From: Deltaproteobacteria bacterium RBG_13_43_22
GTDB lineage: Bacteria; Desulfobacterota; RBG-13-43-22
Length of the DNA: 64,000 bases
Direction of reading: 5' to 3'
Assembly (NCBI GenBank): GCA_001797675.1
Contig: MGQB01000001.1
Location: 248,816-312,815, forward strand
This document shows positions 7,678 through 26,170 of the stretch, one piece after another. Within the stretch, counting starts at the first letter, position 1, and each line of letters begins with the position of its first letter. Position numbers and translations under genes: made by a program. The notes under the pieces were generated by a model. The model saw only the letters and a program-made list of their open reading frames with translations, was not told the DNA's origin and searched no databases.

Positions 7678-9485
7678 TGCATCAGGGAATCATTCATTTT
7701 CCGGAACTTTTTTTCCGACAGGTAGAACGGCTGCAGGATCGAGTAGCCCTGCGAAATAAGGATTACGGAATCTGGAAGCGGGTTTCCTGGAACGAATACG
7801 GGCGAATGGTCCGACAGGTAGCCGCCGGTTTGATGGCCCTGGGGGTAGAGCGGGGGGATCGGGTATCCATCCTGGGTGAAAACCGGCCGGAATGGCTGAT
7901 CTGCCATATAGGGACTATGTCCAGTGGGGCCGTGACCTGCGGGGTTTATCCCACTTCGGCCTCGGACCAGGTGGCCTATGTGGTGGGTCATTCCGAATCA
8001 AAGGTTCTGTTCATCGAAAACGAAGAACAGGTGGACAAGGTCCTTCAAATCCTGCCGGATCTGGAAAAGGTCAAACAAATCATTATCTGGGACCCCAAGG
8101 GACTCTGGGGATTTACCCAGGAAAAAATTATTTTTTTTGACCAATTTATAAAGGAAGCCCAGTCCTATCTGGACAAATATCCCCGCTGCGTAGAGGACCG
8201 CATGAGCCAATTGGAGGCCGATGATACGGCCATGATCATCTATACCTCCGGAACCACCGGCCGTCCCAAAGGGGCCATGATCAGCCACCGCAATATCCTG
8301 GGGATGACCGAATCCTTTATTGCAGTCAATAAGGGTTTTGAAAGCGATGAGGTGGTTTCTTACCTGCCCCTGGCCCATATCTATGAAAATCTCATCTCCC
8401 TCTTCCAGGCCATTTGGAGCGGGTGCAAGGTCAACTTTGTAGAGAGTATCGATACACTGCCGGAAAATCTGCGCGAGGTCTCCCCTACGGTTTTTGCCAG
8501 TGTCCCCAGGATCTGGGAAAAGTTTGCCTCCATGATCGAAATCCGCATGTCCGACTCCACTATCCTAAAAAAAGCCTTATACCGTCTGGCTGTCGGAGTT
8601 GGAATGAAATATGTCCGATCAGCGAAAGGCTCTAAGGAACATCACACCTGGGCTTTACTGTATTGGCCCCTTTACTGGCTGGTTCTTTACCATTTAAGAC
8701 GCCAGCTTGGGTTTGAACGGGTCCGACTGGCTATTTGCGGGGCGGCACCGGCCTCCCCGGAACTGTTTGAATTTTACAATGCCATAGGGGTCCCTTTGCG
8801 TGAAGGGTACGGGCAGACCGAATCCACCGGCGTCATCGCCCTTCAACGTTTGGAAAGGCCCCGTTGGGGGTTTGTGGGGGAACCGATTCCAGGGGTTGAA
8901 GTCAAAATAGCCGAAGATGGAGAGATTCTGGCCCGGGGGGTCGGCGTTTTTAAGGGCTATTTAAAAGATCCTGACCTGACGGCCGAGACCATCAAAGACG
9001 GCTGGCTCCACACCGGAGATGTTGGAATGCTCGATGAGGGTTATCTCAAAATCATGGACAGGAAAAAAGATATCCTGATCACAGCCGGCGGTAAAAATAT
9101 CACCCCGGCCTATATCGAAAACAAACTGAAATTCAGCCCATATATCCAGGATGCCGTGGTCATCGGGGACGGCCGCAAATTTCTTGTGGCCCTGATTCTG
9201 ATTGATGAAGACAACATCAATAAATACGCCCAGGACAACCGTATCCCCTTTACCACTTTTGAAAGTTTAACCCAGAATCCCGAGGTGGTTAAATTAGTTG
9301 ATCAGGAAGTGACTAAGGTCAACAAGACCCTTTCCCAGGTGGAGTCGATAAAAAAATTCGCCTTACTGCCCAGGCGTTTTTATGAAGAAGACGGCGATGT
9401 GACTCCCACTAAAAAGGTCAAACGACGTTTTCTGGAAAAAAGGTATGCCGATTTGATCGAATCCTTGTATAAGGGAAGAAACTGA
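7671..9485 (+). CDS. AMP-forming acyl-CoA ligase (long-chain-fatty-acid-CoA ligase family) embedded in the ABC operon
   Basis: 604 aa with AMP-binding motifs YTSGTTGRPKGAM and GYGQTES. The true start may be the ATG at 7677, which has AAGGAG 8 nt upstream and overlaps the livF-type stop. Confidence 0.88.
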   Translation: MVMHQGIIHFPELFFRQVERLQDRVALRNKDYGIWKRVSWNEYGRMVRQVAAGLMALGVERGDRVSILGENRPEWLICHIGTMSSGAVTCGVYPTSASDQVAYVVGHSESKVLFIENEEQVDKVLQILPDLEKVKQIIIWDPKGLWGFTQEKIIFFDQFIKEAQSYLDKYPRCVEDRMSQLEADDTAMIIYTSGTTGRPKGAMISHRNILGMTESFIAVNKGFESDEVVSYLPLAHIYENLISLFQAIWSGCKVNFVESIDTLPENLREVSPTVFASVPRIWEKFASMIEIRMSDSTILKKALYRLAVGVGMKYVRSAKGSKEHHTWALLYWPLYWLVLYHLRRQLGFERVRLAICGAAPASPELFEFYNAIGVPLREGYGQTESTGVIALQRLERPRWGFVGEPIPGVEVKIAEDGEILARGVGVFKGYLKDPDLTAETIKDGWLHTGDVGMLDEGYLKIMDRKKDILITAGGKNITPAYIENKLKFSPYIQDAVVIGDGRKFLVALILIDEDNINKYAQDNRIPFTTFESLTQNPEVVKLVDQEVTKVNKTLSQVESIKKFALLPRRFYEEDGDVTPTKKVKRRFLEKRYADLIESLYKGRN

Positions 9486-9588
9486 TCCAGGATACGAGAA
9501 AATGGGATGGGATACGGAATATCCCACAAACATCAGCAGTTTTATCATGCATCCTGCATCCTGCATCTTTTTCCGGGAGTAACCAATT

Positions 9589-10569
9589 ATGGATCTAATA
9601 GAAAGCTATAAAGAAGACCTGCGTTTGATCAGACGTTTTGGAACGGGATTCTGGATCGTTTTGTTGCTGATCGGCCTGATCCTGCTCCCCTGGTTTGCCA
9701 GAGAGTATTGGGTTTATGTGGTTACTTTGATATTCATCTATTCCATCGGGATACAAGGGCAGAATATTTTGATCGGCTATACAGGTCAGATATCCTTCGG
9801 TCAAGCGGGCTTCCTGGCTATTGGGGCTTTTACCTACGGGCATCTCTCTCTACTGGGCAGTCCCATCCTGGTTAATCTCTTTTTTTCCGGTCTCATGGCC
9901 GGAATTTTCGGGATATTGGTCGGGTTCCCCTCCCTCCGTTTGAAAGGTCCCTATCTGGCTATTGTCACCCTCGGGTTCGGTATCGCCGTCTATCAGGTTT
10001 TTGTCAACTCGGAAATCCTATCCGGCGGCAGGATGGGTCTGACCATTCAAAAGCTTCAACCCCTCTTCGGCCTGAGCCAGATGACGACTTATTATTATTT
10101 CAATTTTATTTTGGTTTTTCTTTTTACCCTCCTATCTTATAATCTGATCTCTTCTTTTGTAGGCAGGGCCTTTATTGCCATACGGGATAATGACATCGCC
10201 GCCGAGGCCATGGGGGTGAGTCTGACCCGGTACAAGCTCCTTTCCTTTGCCATCAGTTCTTTTTATACGGGCGTCCAGGGCGGATTATATGCCCTCTTAA
10301 TGGGATACCTGGAACCCAACATGTTTACCTTTCTGGAAACCATCACGATCTTTGTAGCCGTCATCATCGGAGGGCTGGCCTCGGTGGAAGGCTCTATCCT
10401 GGGAGCGGCCTTTGTGGTTATGGTGCCTCAGGTGTTCAGCAATACCAAAGCTTTTATCCCCGTTATCTATGGGGTGACCATCCTGATTATTTTAATTTTT
10501 GAACCATTGGGTTTATCCGGCCGATGGATGAAAATAAGGTTATATCTCAGGATGTGGCCGTTTAGATAA
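9589..10569 (+). CDS. Branched-chain amino acid-type ABC permease (LivM-type)
   Basis: 326 aa and polytopic, containing the family string GYTGQISFGQAGFLAIGAF. Confidence 0.9.
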   Translation: MDLIESYKEDLRLIRRFGTGFWIVLLLIGLILLPWFAREYWVYVVTLIFIYSIGIQGQNILIGYTGQISFGQAGFLAIGAFTYGHLSLLGSPILVNLFFSGLMAGIFGILVGFPSLRLKGPYLAIVTLGFGIAVYQVFVNSEILSGGRMGLTIQKLQPLFGLSQMTTYYYFNFILVFLFTLLSYNLISSFVGRAFIAIRDNDIAAEAMGVSLTRYKLLSFAISSFYTGVQGGLYALLMGYLEPNMFTFLETITIFVAVIIGGLASVEGSILGAAFVVMVPQVFSNTKAFIPVIYGVTILIILIFEPLGLSGRWMKIRLYLRMWPFR

Positions 10570-17032: not shown

Positions 17033-17554
17033 TTATATCCGATTCATCATGGATGAATAATCATTTTTCACGTCGATCATATCCAGTAACACGGAGATCT
17101 GGCCCCGATGATGGGTTTGGTGGTTGAACCACTGGAGAAGGATTTTCCATAAGAGGCCTTCCACTTCGTCTCCTTTAAAGTTTTTATATTTGACAGCAGA
17201 ATTCAATTGGTTTTCATCGATTTCGCCAATCAATTGACTGATGGTCTCATCGGCTTGTCTCCTGTGCTGAAACAATTTTTTATACTCGGGCTCATACTCC
17301 TTTTTTAACCCCCTCAAATCCAGGGAAATCACTTCACTTCCGGCTAAGGCTTTGCTTTCCGGGAACACACCCTTAAAACGGGTCAGCCAGAAGAGATCGG
17401 ACAAGAGGTTATGGAACATGGTTTCAAATATGGACGGGAAAAAGGCCTTGGTTTTCATCATGATCTGTTCTTCAGACAAGGGCTCGGTTAATTCAAGGAT
17501 ACTCAGATTGACACTCTGATTATACTTGGCAAATGCATGAAAAATGGTTTTCAT
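17033..17554 (-). CDS. DinB-family protein
   Basis: Contains the NHQTHHRGQ metal-binding motif. The start is moved to ATG 17554 because AAAGGAGA sits 5 nt upstream. The ORF-track start at 17611 has no RBS. Confidence 0.75.
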   Translation of the reverse strand: MKTIFHAFAKYNQSVNLSILELTEPLSEEQIMMKTKAFFPSIFETMFHNLLSDLFWLTRFKGVFPESKALAGSEVISLDLRGLKKEYEPEYKKLFQHRRQADETISQLIGEIDENQLNSAVKYKNFKGDEVEGLLWKILLQWFNHQTHHRGQISVLLDMIDVKNDYSSMMNRI

Positions 17555-17645
17555 GTTTTCTCCTTTCAGGGGAAATTCTAAAATAAAATAACGATAATCC
17601 TTGGATAACATAACCAGCTAATTTGTCAAGAAATTTATTTTATTT

Positions 17646-17929: not shown

Positions 17930-19300
17930 ATGAAAGAATCGCACAATATCCGGCTTCTCGTGGTCGATGACGAGAAGAATCAACGGGAACTTCTCCAGGG
18001 CTTTCTGCAGAAAAAGGGCTATTCAGTGCAGGCAGTTGAAAGCGGGGACCAGGCTTTGGGCTGGCTGAAAGAGCATGTCTGTGAGGTCATCCTGACTGAC
18101 CACAAGATGCCCGGTATGGACGGGACCACCTTGCTCAAAGAGATCAAGGCCCTTTTCCCGGAAACCTGGGTGGTCCTGATGACTGCCTACGGCACGGTGG
18201 AAAAGGCCGTGGAGGCCATGAAACTCGGGGCATACGATTATTTAAGCAAGCCTATTAATCTGGAGGAATTACTGATACTGCTGGAACGGATTGAAAGCAG
18301 TATCCTGCTGACCCGGGAAAACCGTCAATTGCGTGAGGAGTTAAAGGAAAAATTCAGTTTTGAAGGGTTGATCACCCAGAGCTCTAAGATGGAAGAGGTC
18401 CTGTCTCTGGTGGCCCGGGTAGCCCCCAGCCAGTCCACGGTCCTGATCCGGGGAGAAAGCGGGACAGGAAAAGGGTTGATCGCTAAGATTATTCATTACC
18501 ACAGTCCCAGATCCACCGGTCCTATGATCACCATCAATTGTGCGGCCATTCCCGAGAATCTGTTAGAGAGCGAAATCTTCGGTCATGAAAAGGGGGCCTT
18601 CACCGGGGCCTTGTTCCAGCACCGCGGAAAATTCGAACAGGCCCAGGGGGGGACCCTGTTTCTGGATGAGATCGGCGATCTTTCCCCGGCCCTCCAAGCC
18701 AAACTTCTCCGGATGATTCAGGAAAAAACCTTTGAACGGGTGGGCGGTAACAAAACCATCCGAGTGGATGTACGGGTCATTTCAGCTACCCATCAGGATC
18801 TGGAGTCCTCCATTCAAGAAAGACAGTTTCGACAGGACTTATATTTCCGGCTTAATGTGGTTCCCTTATTTTTACCCCCTTTGAGGGAACGTCGTGAAGA
18901 TATCCCTTTGCTGGTTGATTATTTTTTACAAAAATTCGGGCGTGAGAATAATAAAAAAGATCTCGAGGTTTCCAAAGAGGCCAGAGAACTTCTTCTGCGT
19001 TATCCGTACCCGGGCAATGTACGGGAATTGGAGAATTTAGTGGAAAGGGCCGTGGTCCTTTGCCGTGATCCATTGATCACCAGCCGGGACCTGCCTTTCC
19101 ATTTAAAAGAAGGCGTGGGGGAACCTGCTGGTGTAGTCTTTCCTTCCGATCTTACCCTGCCTGAACAATTGGAAGAACTGGAAAGGCATTTGATTCAGCA
19201 GGCCCTCAAGGAGATGGGCGGAGTGCAAACCCGGGCCGCGGAAAAACTGGGAATTAGTGAGAGGGTGCTGCGGTATAAGCTTCAAAAATACGGGCTTTAG
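17930..19300 (+). CDS. Sigma-54-dependent response regulator (NtrC/AtoC family)
   Basis: 456 aa with a REC domain ([12 protein letters not shown]), AAA+ Walker A GESGTGKG, the GAFTGA loop (EKGAFTGA), and a C-terminal Fis-type HTH. Confidence 0.92.
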
Positions 19301-22241: not shown

Positions 22242-25200
22242 TTAATCTTTTCCTTCCGTTGACTCCAACCTCGCCAAGGCCTGGGCTACGCGGGTGGGCC
22301 AGTAGAACGACGGGTTCACGCCCATCTCACGGTAGAGGGCTTCGGCCTTCTTCAGGTTTTCCAGGGCCTCTTCCCTTTGGCCGGCATCAACCAGCAGCTC
22401 TCCCAGAAAAAGATACCCCATGACGGCCGTCGGCCTCGATTTCAATTCTTCGCTTTTGGAGATCCCTTTTTGAATATATCGCTTGGCTTCATCGATATGG
22501 GATGGGTCCGCTTTTCCAGCAATGGACCCGAGTATTATATAGGCTAATGCTTCTCTTCCTCTTAAATTTTTATCGCGGATATATTTTAAGACTTCCTCAA
22601 CAAAATCTCGGGCAGGTCCCAGTTCACCTTTATCCAAGAGGATCAAGGCCAGCATCGAATTACAAATGACGACAGAACCCTCCCCCACAGACTCCTTTTG
22701 GATTTTTAGGCCCTTCTCGGCATGATCCCTGGCCTTATCATACTCTCCGCGGAGATAATGTCCACCCCCGAGGAAACACCAGGCCACTCCGATCGCTAGC
22801 GTAAATCCCGCCTCTTCCATGAACTGAAGGGATTCCCTCGCATGAGCAATCGTATTATCCCCATCCCCCTCAAAGAAAGACAGGATACTGTAAAATAATT
22901 CCCCCCATCCGATGGCGAACTTGTCCTTCAATTCACGGGCATTCCGGATCCCCTTCTCCAACCACGGCTTGGCTTCCTCAAAGCTTCCTAAGTTCGTCAA
23001 CGCGCCCCCGTAGTATGAACAGAGTAACGAATAAACGTTCTGCCCACTTGTGGAAAGGTCCTTTTTCAGCTGGTGTTCCTCAAAGGGCCGGAGGGCCCGC
23101 TGGGCGATGTCGGCCACTTTCCAGGAATCACTACTCGAATAGTATGCAAAACACAACTGATCCGCGCTTTGGAGCATTATTTCGGTTTCCCCGGTCTTCT
23201 CAGCCCCATTGAAACACTTTTCGGCATAGTCCAACCCCAGTGAGAGATTCCCTTTTACAATATGATATATGCTCAAGGTGCGGTGGATACGTATGAGGGC
23301 CTTTTCATCCCCCAGGTCCTGGGCCAGCTTTTCCAACCTTTGCAGGATTTCAAAACTGCCCTCGGGATAGCCTGAGAACATCAAGGGTAAATACATTAGG
23401 AGCATAAGCTCCATCTTTTCCCTTTTCATTTCTTCGTTCTCGGGTTGACTGTCCAGGACCCGGAGGGCCTCCTTGTAGAATCGTATCGCCTCCCAGTTGG
23501 CGTAGTTTTTCACGGCCTTGTCCCCGGAGAGCTTGAGGAACTGATAGGCCTTTTGAGAGTTATTACTCAGGGCGTAGTGGTAGGCCAGCATCTCATAAAA
23601 TTCTTCCAGCCGGTTGGCGTAGATCCCTTCGATCGCCTGGCCGACCTGTTCATGGGTCTCTCTTCTCCTCTTAAGGAGCAGGCTGGTATAGGCCACCTCC
23701 TGGGTCAGGGCATGCTTGAAGATGTACTCCAGCTCCGGGAAGATGGATTTCTCGTTGATGAACTCCAGGTCCTGGAGGGTAAGGAGAGAGGACTTGAGGT
23801 CTTCTCTCAGGCTGGTAACCGCCTGGAGGATACGGAAGGCGAACTCCCGGCCTATGACCGAGGCGGTCTGGATGATCCTCTTGAGATTTTCTTCCAGCCG
23901 GTCCAGACGGGCGGCGATGATCCCCTGGATGGTGTCCGGCACCTGGATGTCCGCGGGCTTGCAGGACAGTCTATAGGTGTGATCCTTTTTCTCGATGGAG
24001 CCGTTCTCCAGGAGGTTGTGGGTAAGCTCCTCCATGAACAGGGGATTGCTGGCCGCTTTGTTGACGATAAGATCAATGAGATCGGGCGCTGCTTCACCCT
24101 CGATGAGGATGGATTGCACCAGACTGGAGCTTATTTTTTTGGGAAGCTGGTCCACTCGAATTTGGCTTAAGTAAGTTTTTCCGGCCCAGGCCGGGGTGTA
24201 GTCCGGGCGAAAGAGAAGGATAAGCAGGATCTTGGCACCAGCCAGGCCCCCGATAAAGGAGGTCAGGAATTCCTCGGAGGTCTTGTCCATCCAGTGCAGG
24301 TCATCCACCACTAAAATCAGCGGCTTCTTTTGGCTCTCGGCCATGAGGAGCAGTCTGATGGCCTCGAAGACCTTCTCCCGCCTCTTCCCGGCCTCGAGCT
24401 TGAGGTATTCCCCGTCTTCCACCGGGAGGGAAAGGACCTCATGGATGGGGGCCTGTATGGGAATAAGATGCCCGCCCACCTCATTGATCCTTTGACCTAT
24501 CTTCTGCTTGATCAGGGCCTCGTCTTCCTCATCGTGGATGTCGAAGCAGCTCTTGAGGATGTCCAGGATGGGAAGGTAGGGGATGATGTCGCCGTAATGA
24601 AGGCATTTGCCTTCAAGAAAGGAGCACTCCGTGAAGGGGAGGGATCGGGTAAACTCACGGACCAGACGGGATTTGCCCATGCCGGCCTCTCCCATGACAC
24701 TTACCACCTGGCCCTGTCCATCCTTGGCCTGTTCATAACAGTCCATGAGATGATCCAGTTCCTTGTTTCGTCCCACGAACGGGGTCAGACCCTTACCTAA
24801 GGAGGCTTCGATCCGGGTCCGGACCGGCCTGGGGCCGATAACCTTGAATGTCCTGACCGGCTGCTCTTTATCCTGCACCTTGGTCTCGCCCAGATCTTCA
24901 AAGTCAAAGTAACCCTCGGTTTGGCGATAGGTATTCTCAGCCACCTGGATGGCGCCGGGTACTGCGGTGTTCTCCATCGCCGAAGCCAGGGTTACGGTGT
25001 CCCCAATGGCCGTGTATTCCATGGTAAGGTCATCGCTTATCCGTCCCACGATGACCAATCCGGTGTTGATGCCGATGCGCAGGGCCAGCTCTATGCCCCT
25101 GGCCTTGAGCTTATCGGCGAAATCTTTCAGGCGGCGCTGGATGGCCAGCGCTGCATACAGGGCACGATGCGGGGCATCTTCATGGGCGATGGGGGCGCCG

Positions 25201-25904
25201 AACAAGGCCATAAGCCCATACCCCAGGGACTGGGCCATGGTGCCCTCATAGCGGCGGATCTCTTCGGTCATGAATTCGAGACAGGGGCTGATCAGGTCAT
25301 GCACTTCTTCGGGGTCCAGTTTCTCCGAAGTGGCAAACCCTTTGGCATCGGCAAAGAGCACCGTGACCTGCTTTCGCTCTCCCTCCAGGCTGCTGCGGAC
25401 AGCCAGGACCCGTTCAACAACGTGTTTGGGGGCAGAGGCCATGGAGGTGGAGAGGACCGACGACCCGGGAGAAGACTGAGCTTCGCCGGGCATAATGCCC
25501 TTGGCCTTTAATCCTTCTATGATCCGGGTAACGGCGGCGGGAATACCTTCCGGCCCCACGGTGATCATGGCCGTCCCGCCCAGGGCATGCCGCCATTCCG
25601 GCTGGCGCTCTTTTAGTTCGGGTGGAGTAATGTTGATCAAAACCGGGAAAAACGGCTTGCCCCTTTCGAATCCTCCTACTACTTCTTTTGTCACCTGGTC
25701 GGAACTGAAGGCATTCGGGGAGGCGATCAGGACGAGACCTTCACAGTCCTCGATGGCCTGGGTGATCTGGATCAGGTAGCTTGTTCCGACCAGTACGTCA
25801 CGTTCGAAATACCAGGTGGAATACCCGGCGGCCTCCAGACCTTGGGCGATCTGCAGCATAATCGGCAGGTCTCTCTCGACATGGCTGAGGAAGATGCGAC
25901 TCAT
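22242..25904 (-). CDS. Multidomain TIR / cyclase-homology / STAND (AAA_16) NTPase / TPR protein
   Basis: 1220-aa ORF with RBS GAGGAGG upstream. N-terminus IFLSHVERD...LVLIASPNAFSSDQVTKEV (TIR-like); RKQVTVLFADAKGF...IGDTVTLASAMEN (class III cyclase fold); GEAGMGKS Walker A and LILVVDD Walker B; then about 430 aa of helical TPR-like repeats. Confidence 0.85.
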   Translation of the reverse strand: MSRIFLSHVERDLPIMLQIAQGLEAAGYSTWYFERDVLVGTSYLIQITQAIEDCEGLVLIASPNAFSSDQVTKEVVGGFERGKPFFPVLINITPPELKERQPEWRHALGGTAMITVGPEGIPAAVTRIIEGLKAKGIMPGEAQSSPGSSVLSTSMASAPKHVVERVLAVRSSLEGERKQVTVLFADAKGFATSEKLDPEEVHDLISPCLEFMTEEIRRYEGTMAQSLGYGLMALFGAPIAHEDAPHRALYAALAIQRRLKDFADKLKARGIELALRIGINTGLVIVGRISDDLTMEYTAIGDTVTLASAMENTAVPGAIQVAENTYRQTEGYFDFEDLGETKVQDKEQPVRTFKVIGPRPVRTRIEASLGKGLTPFVGRNKELDHLMDCYEQAKDGQGQVVSVMGEAGMGKSRLVREFTRSLPFTECSFLEGKCLHYGDIIPYLPILDILKSCFDIHDEEDEALIKQKIGQRINEVGGHLIPIQAPIHEVLSLPVEDGEYLKLEAGKRREKVFEAIRLLLMAESQKKPLILVVDDLHWMDKTSEEFLTSFIGGLAGAKILLILLFRPDYTPAWAGKTYLSQIRVDQLPKKISSSLVQSILIEGEAAPDLIDLIVNKAASNPLFMEELTHNLLENGSIEKKDHTYRLSCKPADIQVPDTIQGIIAARLDRLEENLKRIIQTASVIGREFAFRILQAVTSLREDLKSSLLTLQDLEFINEKSIFPELEYIFKHALTQEVAYTSLLLKRRRETHEQVGQAIEGIYANRLEEFYEMLAYHYALSNNSQKAYQFLKLSGDKAVKNYANWEAIRFYKEALRVLDSQPENEEMKREKMELMLLMYLPLMFSGYPEGSFEILQRLEKLAQDLGDEKALIRIHRTLSIYHIVKGNLSLGLDYAEKCFNGAEKTGETEIMLQSADQLCFAYYSSSDSWKVADIAQRALRPFEEHQLKKDLSTSGQNVYSLLCSYYGGALTNLGSFEEAKPWLEKGIRNARELKDKFAIGWGELFYSILSFFEGDGDNTIAHARESLQFMEEAGFTLAIGVAWCFLGGGHYLRGEYDKARDHAEKGLKIQKESVGEGSVVICNSMLALILLDKGELGPARDFVEEVLKYIRDKNLRGREALAYIILGSIAGKADPSHIDEAKRYIQKGISKSEELKSRPTAVMGYLFLGELLVDAGQREEALENLKKAEALYREMGVNPSFYWPTRVAQALARLESTEGKD
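22260..23567 (-). other. TPR-like helical repeat sensor region (aa ~780-1215)
   Basis: Repeated ~34-aa A/Y/L-rich helical units, for example WEAIRFYKEALRV, EYDKARDHAEKGLKI and QREEALENLKKAEALY. Confidence 0.6.
24105..24782 (-). other. STAND/AAA_16-type P-loop NTPase region (aa ~375-600)
   Basis: FVGRNKEL...VMGEAGMGKSRL (Walker A encoded at 24669..24692) and PLILVVDDLHWMD (Walker B). Confidence 0.75.
24837..25379 (-). other. Class III nucleotidyl cyclase homology domain, predicted catalytically degenerate (aa 176-356)
   Basis: The first metal Asp is present (LFADAKGF). LGYGLMALFG replaces the xGDAxMAxFG motif (Asp->Tyr, and the upstream Lys->Gln). GDTVTLASAME replaces GDTVNLASRLE (Asn->Thr, Arg->Ala). 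Confidence 0.6.
25500..25904 (-). other. TIR domain region of the 1220-aa protein (aa 1-135)
   Basis: IFLSH start, the beta-strand LVLIASP, and the S-x-x-V-x-x-E motif with candidate catalytic Glu74. Confidence 0.65.
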
Positions 25905-25955
25905 AAGGAATGCCCTCCTCGTTACAAATCATCATTTAAAGCGAAAAGAAGAACA

Positions 25956-25993: not shown

Positions 25994-26170
25994 TTTTTCA
26001 TTCTAAGTCTTATTTAGGTGCTTAAATGTTGCCTACTGCAGGAAAACAAGAAATTGCTATTAATTCGAAGAGTATAAAGCAAGGGAAAGACAGGATCAAG
26101 GGAAAAAAGGGGCGAGAGAGACCAAAGATTGGCCTCAATAATTTTAAGGTTTATAGTTGAGTTTTTATGA

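Follow-up and report, generated by a model that had tools for sequence, protein, structure and literature searches.

A single-chain TIR-cyclase-homology-STAND-TPR protein with an NLR-like layout and a degenerate cyclase site

We analysed a stretch of 64,000 nucleotides (hereafter the window) from the genome of Deltaproteobacteria bacterium RBG_13_43_22, in which a solitary gene encodes a 1220-residue protein that joins, in one chain, a TIR domain, a class III cyclase-homology domain (CHD), a STAND nucleoside triphosphatase (NTPase) and an array of TPR-like repeats. By analogy with NLR-type receptors, we favour with modest confidence the explanation that this protein is a single-chain STAND receptor, the output of which would be an NAD+-cleaving TIR domain, while the CHD would be kept as a scaffold; a role in conflict or defence is then the most likely one. 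The direct basis of this explanation consists of the architecture, the states of the catalytic residues, their conservation, the fold matches, the rate asymmetry along the protein, the variability of the genomic context and the pairing of a sister subclade with SLATT genes. From these we infer the ligand, the oligomerisation, the NADase chemistry and the defence role.

Domain architecture and the TIR domain

The open reading frame (ORF) lies uninterrupted on the minus strand, which the initial annotation had left unstated, with the start codon ATG at 25904-25902 and the stop codon at 22244-22242. In a protein search, its product is 100% identical to “hypothetical protein A2Y79_13375” of the same organism. 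The initial annotation of this DNA, which was made from the letters alone, had read a TIR domain, a cyclase-homology domain, a STAND NTPase and TPRs in this one ORF. The Pfam profiles bear out this reading, as they all score above their curated thresholds, and the motifs that had been quoted (IFLSHVERD, SSDQVTKEV with Glu74, GEAGMGKS with Lys411, and LILVVDD) are all present. The features of the gene are as follows, with the basis of each assignment in brackets.

22242 to 25904, minus strand: complete ORF of 1220 codons plus stop, with TIR, cyclase-homology, STAND NTPase and TPR regions (ORF list and translation)
25500 to 25904, minus strand: TIR domain, residues 1-135, with the Glu74 codon at 25683-25685 (Pfam TIR_2, AlphaFold2/Foldseek)
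25389 to 25499, minus strand: flexible linker, residues 136-172 (pLDDT below 50 at residues 141-148; fast substitution, see below)
24840 to 25388, minus strand: class III cyclase-homology domain, residues 173-355, predicted to be catalytically degenerate (Pfam, structure alignment, AlphaFold2/Foldseek)
25347 to 25349, minus strand: Asp186, the first metal-binding Asp, kept in FADAKGF (alignment)
25218 to 25220, minus strand: Tyr229, in place of the second metal-binding Asp, IGD becoming LGY (alignment)
24990 to 24992, minus strand: Thr305, in place of the transition-state Asn, GDTVNLASR becoming GDTVTLASA (alignment)
24978 to 24980, minus strand: Ala309, in place of the Arg of the same motif (alignment)
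24240 to 24782, minus strand: STAND/AAA_16 P-loop NTPase, residues 375-555 (Pfam AAA_16)
24669 to 24692, minus strand: Walker A, GEAGMGKS, with Lys411 (motif)
24300 to 24320, minus strand: Walker B, LILVVDD, with Asp534 and Asp535 (motif)
23535 to 24239, minus strand: conserved helical middle region, residues 556-790 (near-invariant columns GNPLF.EE and FKHALTQEVAY)
22245 to 23534, minus strand: TPR-like repeat region, the putative sensor, residues 791-1220 (Pfam TPR families)

The TIR domain is recognised by the Pfam TIR_2 profile over residues 4-101 (53.4 bits against a cutoff of 28, E = 4.5e-14) and by the Pfam TIR profile (22.1 bits against 21.3). Glu74, which had been put forward as a candidate catalytic residue, is aligned by phmmer to the catalytic Glu of 7uxr, PdTIR (3h16) and AbTir (7uwg/8g83), and also to that of BtTir-type domains. 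Of 93 TIR-bearing homologues, 92 have this Glu, as do more than 90% of 83 wider TIR relatives, and it is among the 12 residues that are invariant in the TIR domains of 76 homologues. We modelled the TIR domain alone, because the fold search with a model of residues 1-365 was swamped by cyclase matches. The AlphaFold2 model of the TIR domain, with the 76 homologues as input, has a pLDDT of 94 and a pTM of 0.88, and its best Foldseek matches in the PDB are NAD+-cleaving TIR domains, namely SARM1, the SPARTA TIR-APAZ protein and AbTir (TMq 0.74-0.84). The SPARTA TIR-APAZ structures superpose with a TMq of 0.80-0.84 and a root-mean-square deviation (rmsd) of 2.1-2.5 Å, and AbTir with bound 3AD (7uxu) superposes with a TMq of 0.80, a TMt of 0.83 and an rmsd of 2.3 Å. 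Further matches are the plant TIR domains of RUN1, RPV1 and RPP1, and Cat1.

The clade to which this TIR domain belongs comprises 235 clusters at E<=1e-30, and it also forms the N-terminus of other proteins, which carry an alpha/beta-hydrolase, WD40 propellers, Lcl_C or LVIVD domains, or tandem TIR domains. The closest TIR domain outside the family (P0121) is 79% identical over 140 residues and heads a 438-residue TIR plus alpha/beta-hydrolase protein.

The NTPase matches Pfam AAA_16 over residues 375-555 (99.8 bits against a cutoff of 32.6, E = 3.2e-28). All 120 aligned homologues carry the Walker A Lys, and the acidic pair of Walker B is conserved. Membership in the STAND class is indicated by both Walker motifs and by the presence, in one polypeptide, of an N-terminal effector and a C-terminal repeat sensor. 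Residues 556-790 probably form the helical and winged-helix portion of that module, and the number of nonsynonymous changes per site relative to synonymous ones (pN/pS) is about 0 at residues 661-750 in a sliding-window comparison with the orthologue. In the C-terminal region, TPR_MalT matches residues 1006-1213 (51.8 bits against 45), and together with TPR_12, TPR_2 and TPR_1 the TPR coverage extends over residues ~966-1213; TPR_10 matches as well. Of the whole protein, this region agrees least with the family consensus (identity ~0.52). Searches of the PDB with the NTPase-TPR region, with the single sequence and with a profile, returned only designed or generic TPR proteins and P-loop noise (best E = 0.06). 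No solved STAND relative turned up in these searches.

The substitution rates differ strongly along the protein. In one pairwise comparison by the Nei-Gojobori method with the orthologue of a syntenic relative (84% amino acid identity), the ratio of nonsynonymous to synonymous rates (dN/dS) is 0.09 for the TIR domain, 0.54 for the linker, 0.20 for the CHD, 0.28 for the NTPase, 0.16 for the middle region and 0.45-0.49 for the two halves of the TPR region. The TIR domain is the most constrained region, and the TPR sensor is the fastest-evolving part: the sliding-window pN/pS is 0.5-1.0 over residues 840-1220, as compared to 0.01-0.19 in the flanking genes. A conserved effector and switch combined with a fast sensor is, by analogy, the pattern of NLR/Avs-type receptors.

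The cyclase-homology domain and the wider family

Pfam Guanylate_cyc matches residues 177-353 (78.9 bits against a cutoff of 21.9, E = 4.7e-22), and the model of this domain superposes with CyaB, CyaC, Cya2, Rv1900c and Ma1120 (TMt 0.8-0.88), so that its predicted fold is certainly that of a class III cyclase. The catalytic residues were assigned by a residue-wise alignment to CyaB (3r5g), Cya2 (2w01) and RhGC (6sir). Fold and profile are those of a class III cyclase, whereas one of the two metal-binding Asp residues and both the transition-state Asn and the Arg are replaced, which the initial annotation had not noticed. The substrate-defining Lys corresponds to Gln225, and a Gln in that column is the norm of the family. 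The 84%-identical orthologue shows the same degenerate pattern. In class III cyclase dimers, such as mammalian C1/C2 and Rv1625c, each active site takes two Asp residues from one face and the Asn, Arg and Lys residues from the other. With damage on both faces in this protein, a canonical site would be completed neither in a homodimer nor by pairing with an intact paralogue. As judged from these residues, the CHD appears to be a pseudoenzyme, which cannot act as a conventional cyclase or as a second signal generator. The domain is nonetheless still constrained, and as part of the explanation that we modestly favour, its fold would be under purifying selection as a scaffold, or possibly as a nucleotide-binding module.

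The protein is one of a large family. More than 7700 relatives were significant in the protein search, and the full TIR-CHD-AAA_16-TPR layout is found in 77 of the best 120 matches; in the remaining ones, the core is the same but is headed by a double zinc ribbon (PF12773/PF13240) or lacks an N-terminal module. A metagenome scan with a TIR-only alignment added 69 loci, 56 of which contain complete TIR-CHD-NTPase genes. The architecture is thus common in sediment and groundwater metagenomes and is not unique. The initial annotation had called the stacking of a TIR domain on a cyclase module uncharacterised: our literature searches found no published account of a TIR-cyclase-STAND protein, which agrees with this statement, but the architecture as such is not rare. 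The TIR-less relatives share 50-56% identity with the window protein over 85-88% of the length. When the CHD-NTPase region is placed on a neighbour-joining tree, the TIR, zinc-ribbon and no-module types are interspersed; therefore, the N-terminal module has been exchanged repeatedly among close relatives.

The state of the cyclase site goes with the N-terminal module. Among 145 non-redundant proteins that were pooled for the comparison, 30 of 93 TIR-bearing proteins carry a broken catalytic set, as compared to none of the 49 close homologues that are complete and TIR-less (Fisher p = 5e-7, a value that overstates independence, like the other p-value below, since the sequences are phylogenetically related). 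The criterion for a degenerate site at first included the Asn, and was relaxed to the two Asp residues and the Arg after His and Gly had been seen in that column in TIR-less relatives. With the relaxed criterion, the site is broken in ~29 of 93 TIR-bearing proteins, as compared to 1 of 131 TIR-less ones; this single protein without the Asp/Asp/Arg set is among 82 further TIR-less homologues from cultured and metagenome-assembled genomes. The broken sites take many forms (DQYTA, GQDNQ, EHHNE, ESESH and others), about two thirds of the TIR-bearing homologues retain the full catalytic set, and parsimony on the tree requires ~16 changes of the cyclase-site state. In the degenerate members, the CHD is less conserved relative to the NTPase (ratio 0.99 vs 1.12, p = 5e-6), and the TIR domain is as conserved as in the other members. 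The simplest reading is that the cyclase is the indispensable output of the TIR-less proteins, and that its chemistry becomes dispensable once a TIR domain is present, with the fold retained on other grounds.

The TIR-less control set came from a scan of genome contigs with a TIR+CHD alignment, in which Walker A was one of two patterns, and which served for this set only. It yielded 80 TIR-less cyclase-STAND loci (L010-L089), and this TIR domain was found in none of them. In 62 of the 82 TIR-less proteins, the transition-state Asn column holds His or Gly (DKDHR, DQDHR, DQDGR) with both Asp residues and the Arg kept. This is an unusual variant of the active site; the hosts of the TIR-less homologues include Cupriavidus, Paraburkholderia, Rokubacteria and Methylomirabilota.

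Locus and genomic context

The gene is preceded, on the same strand, by murA-like, prmC, prfA, DUF1385 and rho genes; comEC follows it, and beyond lie DinB, RNase_H_2 and NtrC-type regulator genes. The description of this region as the least housekeeping-like of the window was only half right, given the genes upstream. The following signals lie in front of the gene.

25914 to 25920, minus strand: Shine-Dalgarno sequence GAGGAGG, 9 nt before the ATG (sequence reading)
26071 to 26099, minus strand: weak promoter-like site TTGATC-17-TATACT, within the 266-bp upstream spacer (consensus scan)
26103 to 26136, minus strand: hairpin and U-run just past the murA-like stop codon (stem GAGGCCAA/TTGGTCTC, then CCCCTTTTTT)

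The Shine-Dalgarno sequence agrees with the strong ribosome-binding site that had been noted before. The promoter scan counted no more sites than in shuffled sequence. The hairpin, which the consensus terminator scan missed, is probably the intrinsic terminator of the murA-like gene, and would uncouple transcription of the TIR-cyclase-STAND gene from the upstream housekeeping genes. Because of this hairpin with its U-run after murA and the 266-bp spacer, the arrangement suggests that the gene has its own transcription start. On the other side, the terminator scan found no terminator-like site between the gene and comEC. A riboswitch or other leader RNA was considered and rejected: the Rfam search of the leader was empty, and the leader folds no better than shuffled sequences.

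As the initial annotation had stated, no partner gene is apparent among the neighbours. In particular, there is no TIR partner gene nearby, no match to a SLATT gene anywhere within the 64-kb window, no adjoining second cyclase gene or gene for a cyclic-nucleotide-binding domain (CNBD), and no other match to the CHD or the NTPase in the window. The syntenic relative (L001) has the same order of murA, the orthologue and comEC. Its murA-like gene is called as two ORFs of 155 and 274 residues (8337-9594), which is probably an assembly frameshift and not biology. The relative has two DinB-family genes (17052-17573 and 18069-18590), as compared to one in the window (17033-17611), and the NtrC-type regulator gene of the window (17930-19300) is missing from its matching stretch.

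The composition of the gene is atypical. Among the 21 long ORFs of the window, it has the highest GC content (0.547) and the highest GC content at third codon positions (GC3, 0.683, with the other long ORFs at 0.51-0.66), and the two GC-richest 1-kb bins of the window fall inside it. GC3 is 0.67-0.75 up to about codon 1000 and a host-like 0.55 in the last 220 codons (22245-22904). Likewise, the synonymous divergence (dS) from the orthologue is 0.22-0.30 in the first 1000 codons and 0.56 in the last 220, with 0.45-1.2 in the flanking genes. These values suggest that the gene is a mosaic or that its N-terminal part was recently exchanged.

In the nine long homologue contigs, the context differs in all except the one syntenic relative, and among 48 non-redundant homologue loci (a small sample of metagenomic contigs), the 112 genes closest to them represent 136 Pfam families, and no partner recurs. 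The conserved housekeeping operons that would have spoken for an ordinary function are not seen, since the contexts vary. Nor are the defence-island neighbourhoods expected of an antiphage protein: the surroundings of these 48 loci are mixed and for the most part of a housekeeping or metabolic kind, and the family shows no visible enrichment in defence islands.

Three other features point to conflict-type biology, namely tandem arrays, arrays adjacent to CNBD genes and a SLATT-linked subclade. Tandem arrays of paralogues that mix their N-termini occur in four cases (L004/L133, L005/L137, L007/L125 and L117). Two of these (L004, identical to L133, 1-20755; L007, identical to L125, 9258-23648) contain 3-4 cyclase-STAND paralogues, the N-termini of which are a TIR domain, a double zinc ribbon or none. 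A CNBD-NTE-patatin gene lies beside the array of intact cyclases in L004, and a CNBD-rubredoxin gene, the CNBD of which is closest to that of PycTIR, lies beside the one in L007. This suggests cyclic nucleotide monophosphate (cNMP) signalling partners for the catalytically intact members. In a sister subclade, the TIR domain of which is 51-58% identical to that of the window protein, a SLATT_1 gene (483-539 residues) lies 17-22 bp upstream of the TIR gene in five contigs (L005 1022-13624, identical to L137; L009 8532-13651; L136; L138; L140). These loci carry one to three tandem TIR-cyclase-STAND genes, and no PADLOC model matched their SLATT proteins.

Proposed mechanism, alternatives and known systems

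We propose the following mechanism. The C-terminal TPR array would bind a ligand, and this binding would free the AAA_16 NTPase to bind ATP and oligomerise. Oligomerisation would then bring the TIR domains together, probably aided by head-to-tail dimerisation of the CHD fold. The assembled TIR domains would form composite active sites and cleave NAD+, resulting in NAD+ depletion or in a signal derived from ADP-ribose. The degenerate CHD would act as a scaffold or possibly as a nucleotide-binding module, and not as a cNMP generator. The outcome may be abortive infection or growth arrest upon sensing of an invader. At the window locus no partner would be needed, while a SLATT membrane effector may be the partner of the proteins in the sister subclade. 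Defence is a plausible role, on the grounds of the analogy, the rate pattern and the SLATT-linked sister clade, and not of the genomic context.

Several observations weigh against this explanation. The rate asymmetry comes from one pair of sequences, no pN/pS window exceeds 1, and relaxed constraint on the TPRs could also be the cause of their fast rate. The Trp that precedes the catalytic Glu by four residues in AbTir-type TIR domains is a near-invariant Gln (Gln70) here, and the TIR chemistry could differ because of this replacement. In the CHD, the Asn column also holds His or Gly in TIR-less relatives, so that N305T alone is no proof of inactivity; the argument for inactivity rests on D229Y and R309A. 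The Arg column, unlike the Asn column, does not vary in these relatives. The statistics on cyclase decay suffer from the relatedness noted above. The gene is flanked by murA, prmC, prfA, rho and comEC in a position that is syntenic in a related genome, the neighbours of the 48 homologue loci are mostly metabolic or housekeeping genes with almost no specific PADLOC matches and no defence enrichment, and the PADLOC scan of the protein (E<=1) matched no Avs or TIR-NLR model.

An alternative is that the protein serves physiological signalling and not immunity, which we consider clearly less probable but the most serious competitor. The STAND-TPR module would sense an endogenous or environmental ligand, and the TIR domain would tune NAD+- or ADPR-type metabolites or recruit partners in normal regulation (stress, dormancy, development), much like the many cyclase-AAA_16-TPR proteins of Actinobacteria and Proteobacteria to which a role in cAMP signalling is ascribed. 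The housekeeping neighbourhood and its synteny, the absence of defence-gene enrichment among the 112 homologue neighbours, and the occurrence of the TIR-less core family (more than 7700 matches) in ordinary chromosomes of Cupriavidus, Paraburkholderia, Pseudomonas and Ralstonia are consistent with this idea, as is the best NCBIfam similarity, which is to the TOMM kinase/cyclase fusion and MalT/AfsR-type regulators. However, the catalytic Glu of the TIR domain is strictly conserved and the closest folds are NADase TIR domains, and to our knowledge, the NAD+-cleaving TIR domains characterised so far in bacteria come almost only from defence or toxin contexts. Moreover, the fast sensor, the N-terminal swaps, the tandem arrays and the atypical composition are more typical of conflict genes, and one subclade is operonic with a SLATT pore-type effector. 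The same conservation of Glu74, in the family and in the wider TIR relatives, also makes it improbable that the TIR domain is a non-catalytic adaptor of the TLR/MyD88 type, which would assemble homotypically or recruit a TIR protein encoded elsewhere: MyD88 TIR filaments are among the structural matches (rank 36) and the AbTir Trp is replaced, but the top structural matches are all enzymes and no TIR partner gene is nearby.

The CHD invites two further readings. One holds that synthesis of a cyclic nucleotide persists, through non-canonical chemistry or in a heterodimer with a catalytically intact paralogue, and that this nucleotide would control the TIR domain in cis or in trans as in a fused Pycsar/Pucsar-like circuit. 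PycC models of PADLOC match the domain (best E 7e-16), cGMP-activated TIR effectors are known, and, elsewhere in the family, most TIR-bearing members keep the full catalytic set and arrays adjoin cNMP-binding genes (CNBD-patatin, and CNBD-rubredoxin with its PycTIR-like CNBD). We nevertheless hold this reading to be very improbable, given the damage to both halves of the active site (the metal face at position 229, and the face of positions 305 and 309 and the substrate Lys), a protein that has no cNMP-binding domain, and a locus with no adjoining cyclase or CNBD gene. Rescue by a heterodimer, which the tandem paralogues elsewhere had brought up, was rejected on the same grounds, with both faces damaged and no second copy in the window. 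The other reading takes the family as a class of dual-output NLR-like receptors, in which the CHD dimer would be a platform that licenses TIR assembly, and a fused TIR domain would repeatedly become the sole output while the cyclase decays. We regard this reading as unlikely; in an equally tentative extension of it, the decayed CHD may still bind a nucleotide and gate the TIR domain allosterically, and in some lineages the TIR product may drive a SLATT pore.

TIR-STAND receptors are a theme common to bacterial, plant and animal immunity, and this family adds a cyclase fold between the TIR domain and the NTPase. The TIR-dependent decay of the cyclase yields testable predictions on which domain is the output, and the family provides natural variants with active and dead cyclases, with which the activation of TIR enzymes by STAND oligomerisation could be dissected. 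Through the SLATT-linked subclade, STAND sensing would be connected with Thoeris-type signalling. Should the family have no immune role, it would be among the few cases of a catalytic-type TIR domain in ordinary bacterial signalling; if the dual-output reading is true, it would represent a new way of TIR activation and a natural series in which one effector replaces another within an immune receptor. Most deserving of attention are the recurrent decay of the cyclase site in the presence of a TIR domain and the subclade that combines STAND with SLATT.

How does the receptor-like explanation that we favour relate the protein to known systems? With Avs-type proteins, TIR-NLRs and plant TNLs, it shares the N-terminal TIR domain, the central P-loop STAND NTPase and the C-terminal helical-repeat sensor in a single chain, the conserved effector with a variable sensor, and an expected ligand-induced oligomerisation that would assemble the TIR sites. 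It differs from them in the ~180-residue CHD between the TIR domain and the NTPase, in an NTPase of the AAA_16 (MalT/LAL-like) and not the NB-ARC or NACHT type, and in the lack of a defence-island context at the 48 family loci. Of the NLR/Avs-like logic that had been proposed at first, the layout and the conserved-effector/variable-sensor pattern stand, and the assignment to a defined Avs or TIR-NLR model does not. The logic is a well-supported analogy, from which the defence function is deduced.

From the CHD to the TPRs, the window protein is homologous to the cyclase-AAA_16-TPR proteins, such as the Rv0386-type STAND adenylyl cyclases of M. tuberculosis. It differs from these in the added TIR domain, in a cyclase that has lost its second metal Asp, its Asn and its Arg, and in having no LuxR-type DNA-binding domain; Castro et al. 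reportedly found, in 2005, a Gln at the substrate-Lys position of Rv0386. The TOMM kinase/cyclase fusion model TIGR03903 matches residues 173-1111 with 329 bits, which is below its cutoff of 705.75 and covers only profile positions 281-1209, and the window protein has no kinase.

In type VII Thoeris, a TIR protein makes cyclic ADP-ribose, which activates the SLATT effector ThsH (bioRxiv 10.64898/2025.12.03.692087); the same study set aside stand-alone TIR genes and the TIR domains of Avs proteins, taking them for effectors that probably deplete NAD+. The sister subclade resembles this system in pairing a TIR gene with an adjoining SLATT gene. However, a SLATT gene is missing from the window locus, the place of the small ThsB is taken by a 1200-residue STAND receptor, and the SLATT proteins of the subclade are long and match no PADLOC model. 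The likeness is one of gene layout. With Pycsar and Pucsar, the protein shares a class III-like cyclase fold and a TIR domain of the NADase type in one unit, and the PycC models match its CHD. In contrast to these systems, the two domains are fused, the cyclase is degenerate, no CNBD is present in the protein or its neighbours, and control would be expected from the STAND/TPR module and not from a diffusible cNMP. STAND-fused cNMP cyclases have been placed in a predicted “immune clade 1” (10.64898/2026.08.12.744502). We decided against classifying the protein under Avs, TIR-NLR, Pycsar or Thoeris, as the PADLOC matches (PycC as above, and weak ones to SAVED_TIR, Aga_TIR and PDC-S27/S66) are at the domain level only. 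The protein is an uncharacterised variant of a known immune-type receptor kind, and stands outside every defined defence family.

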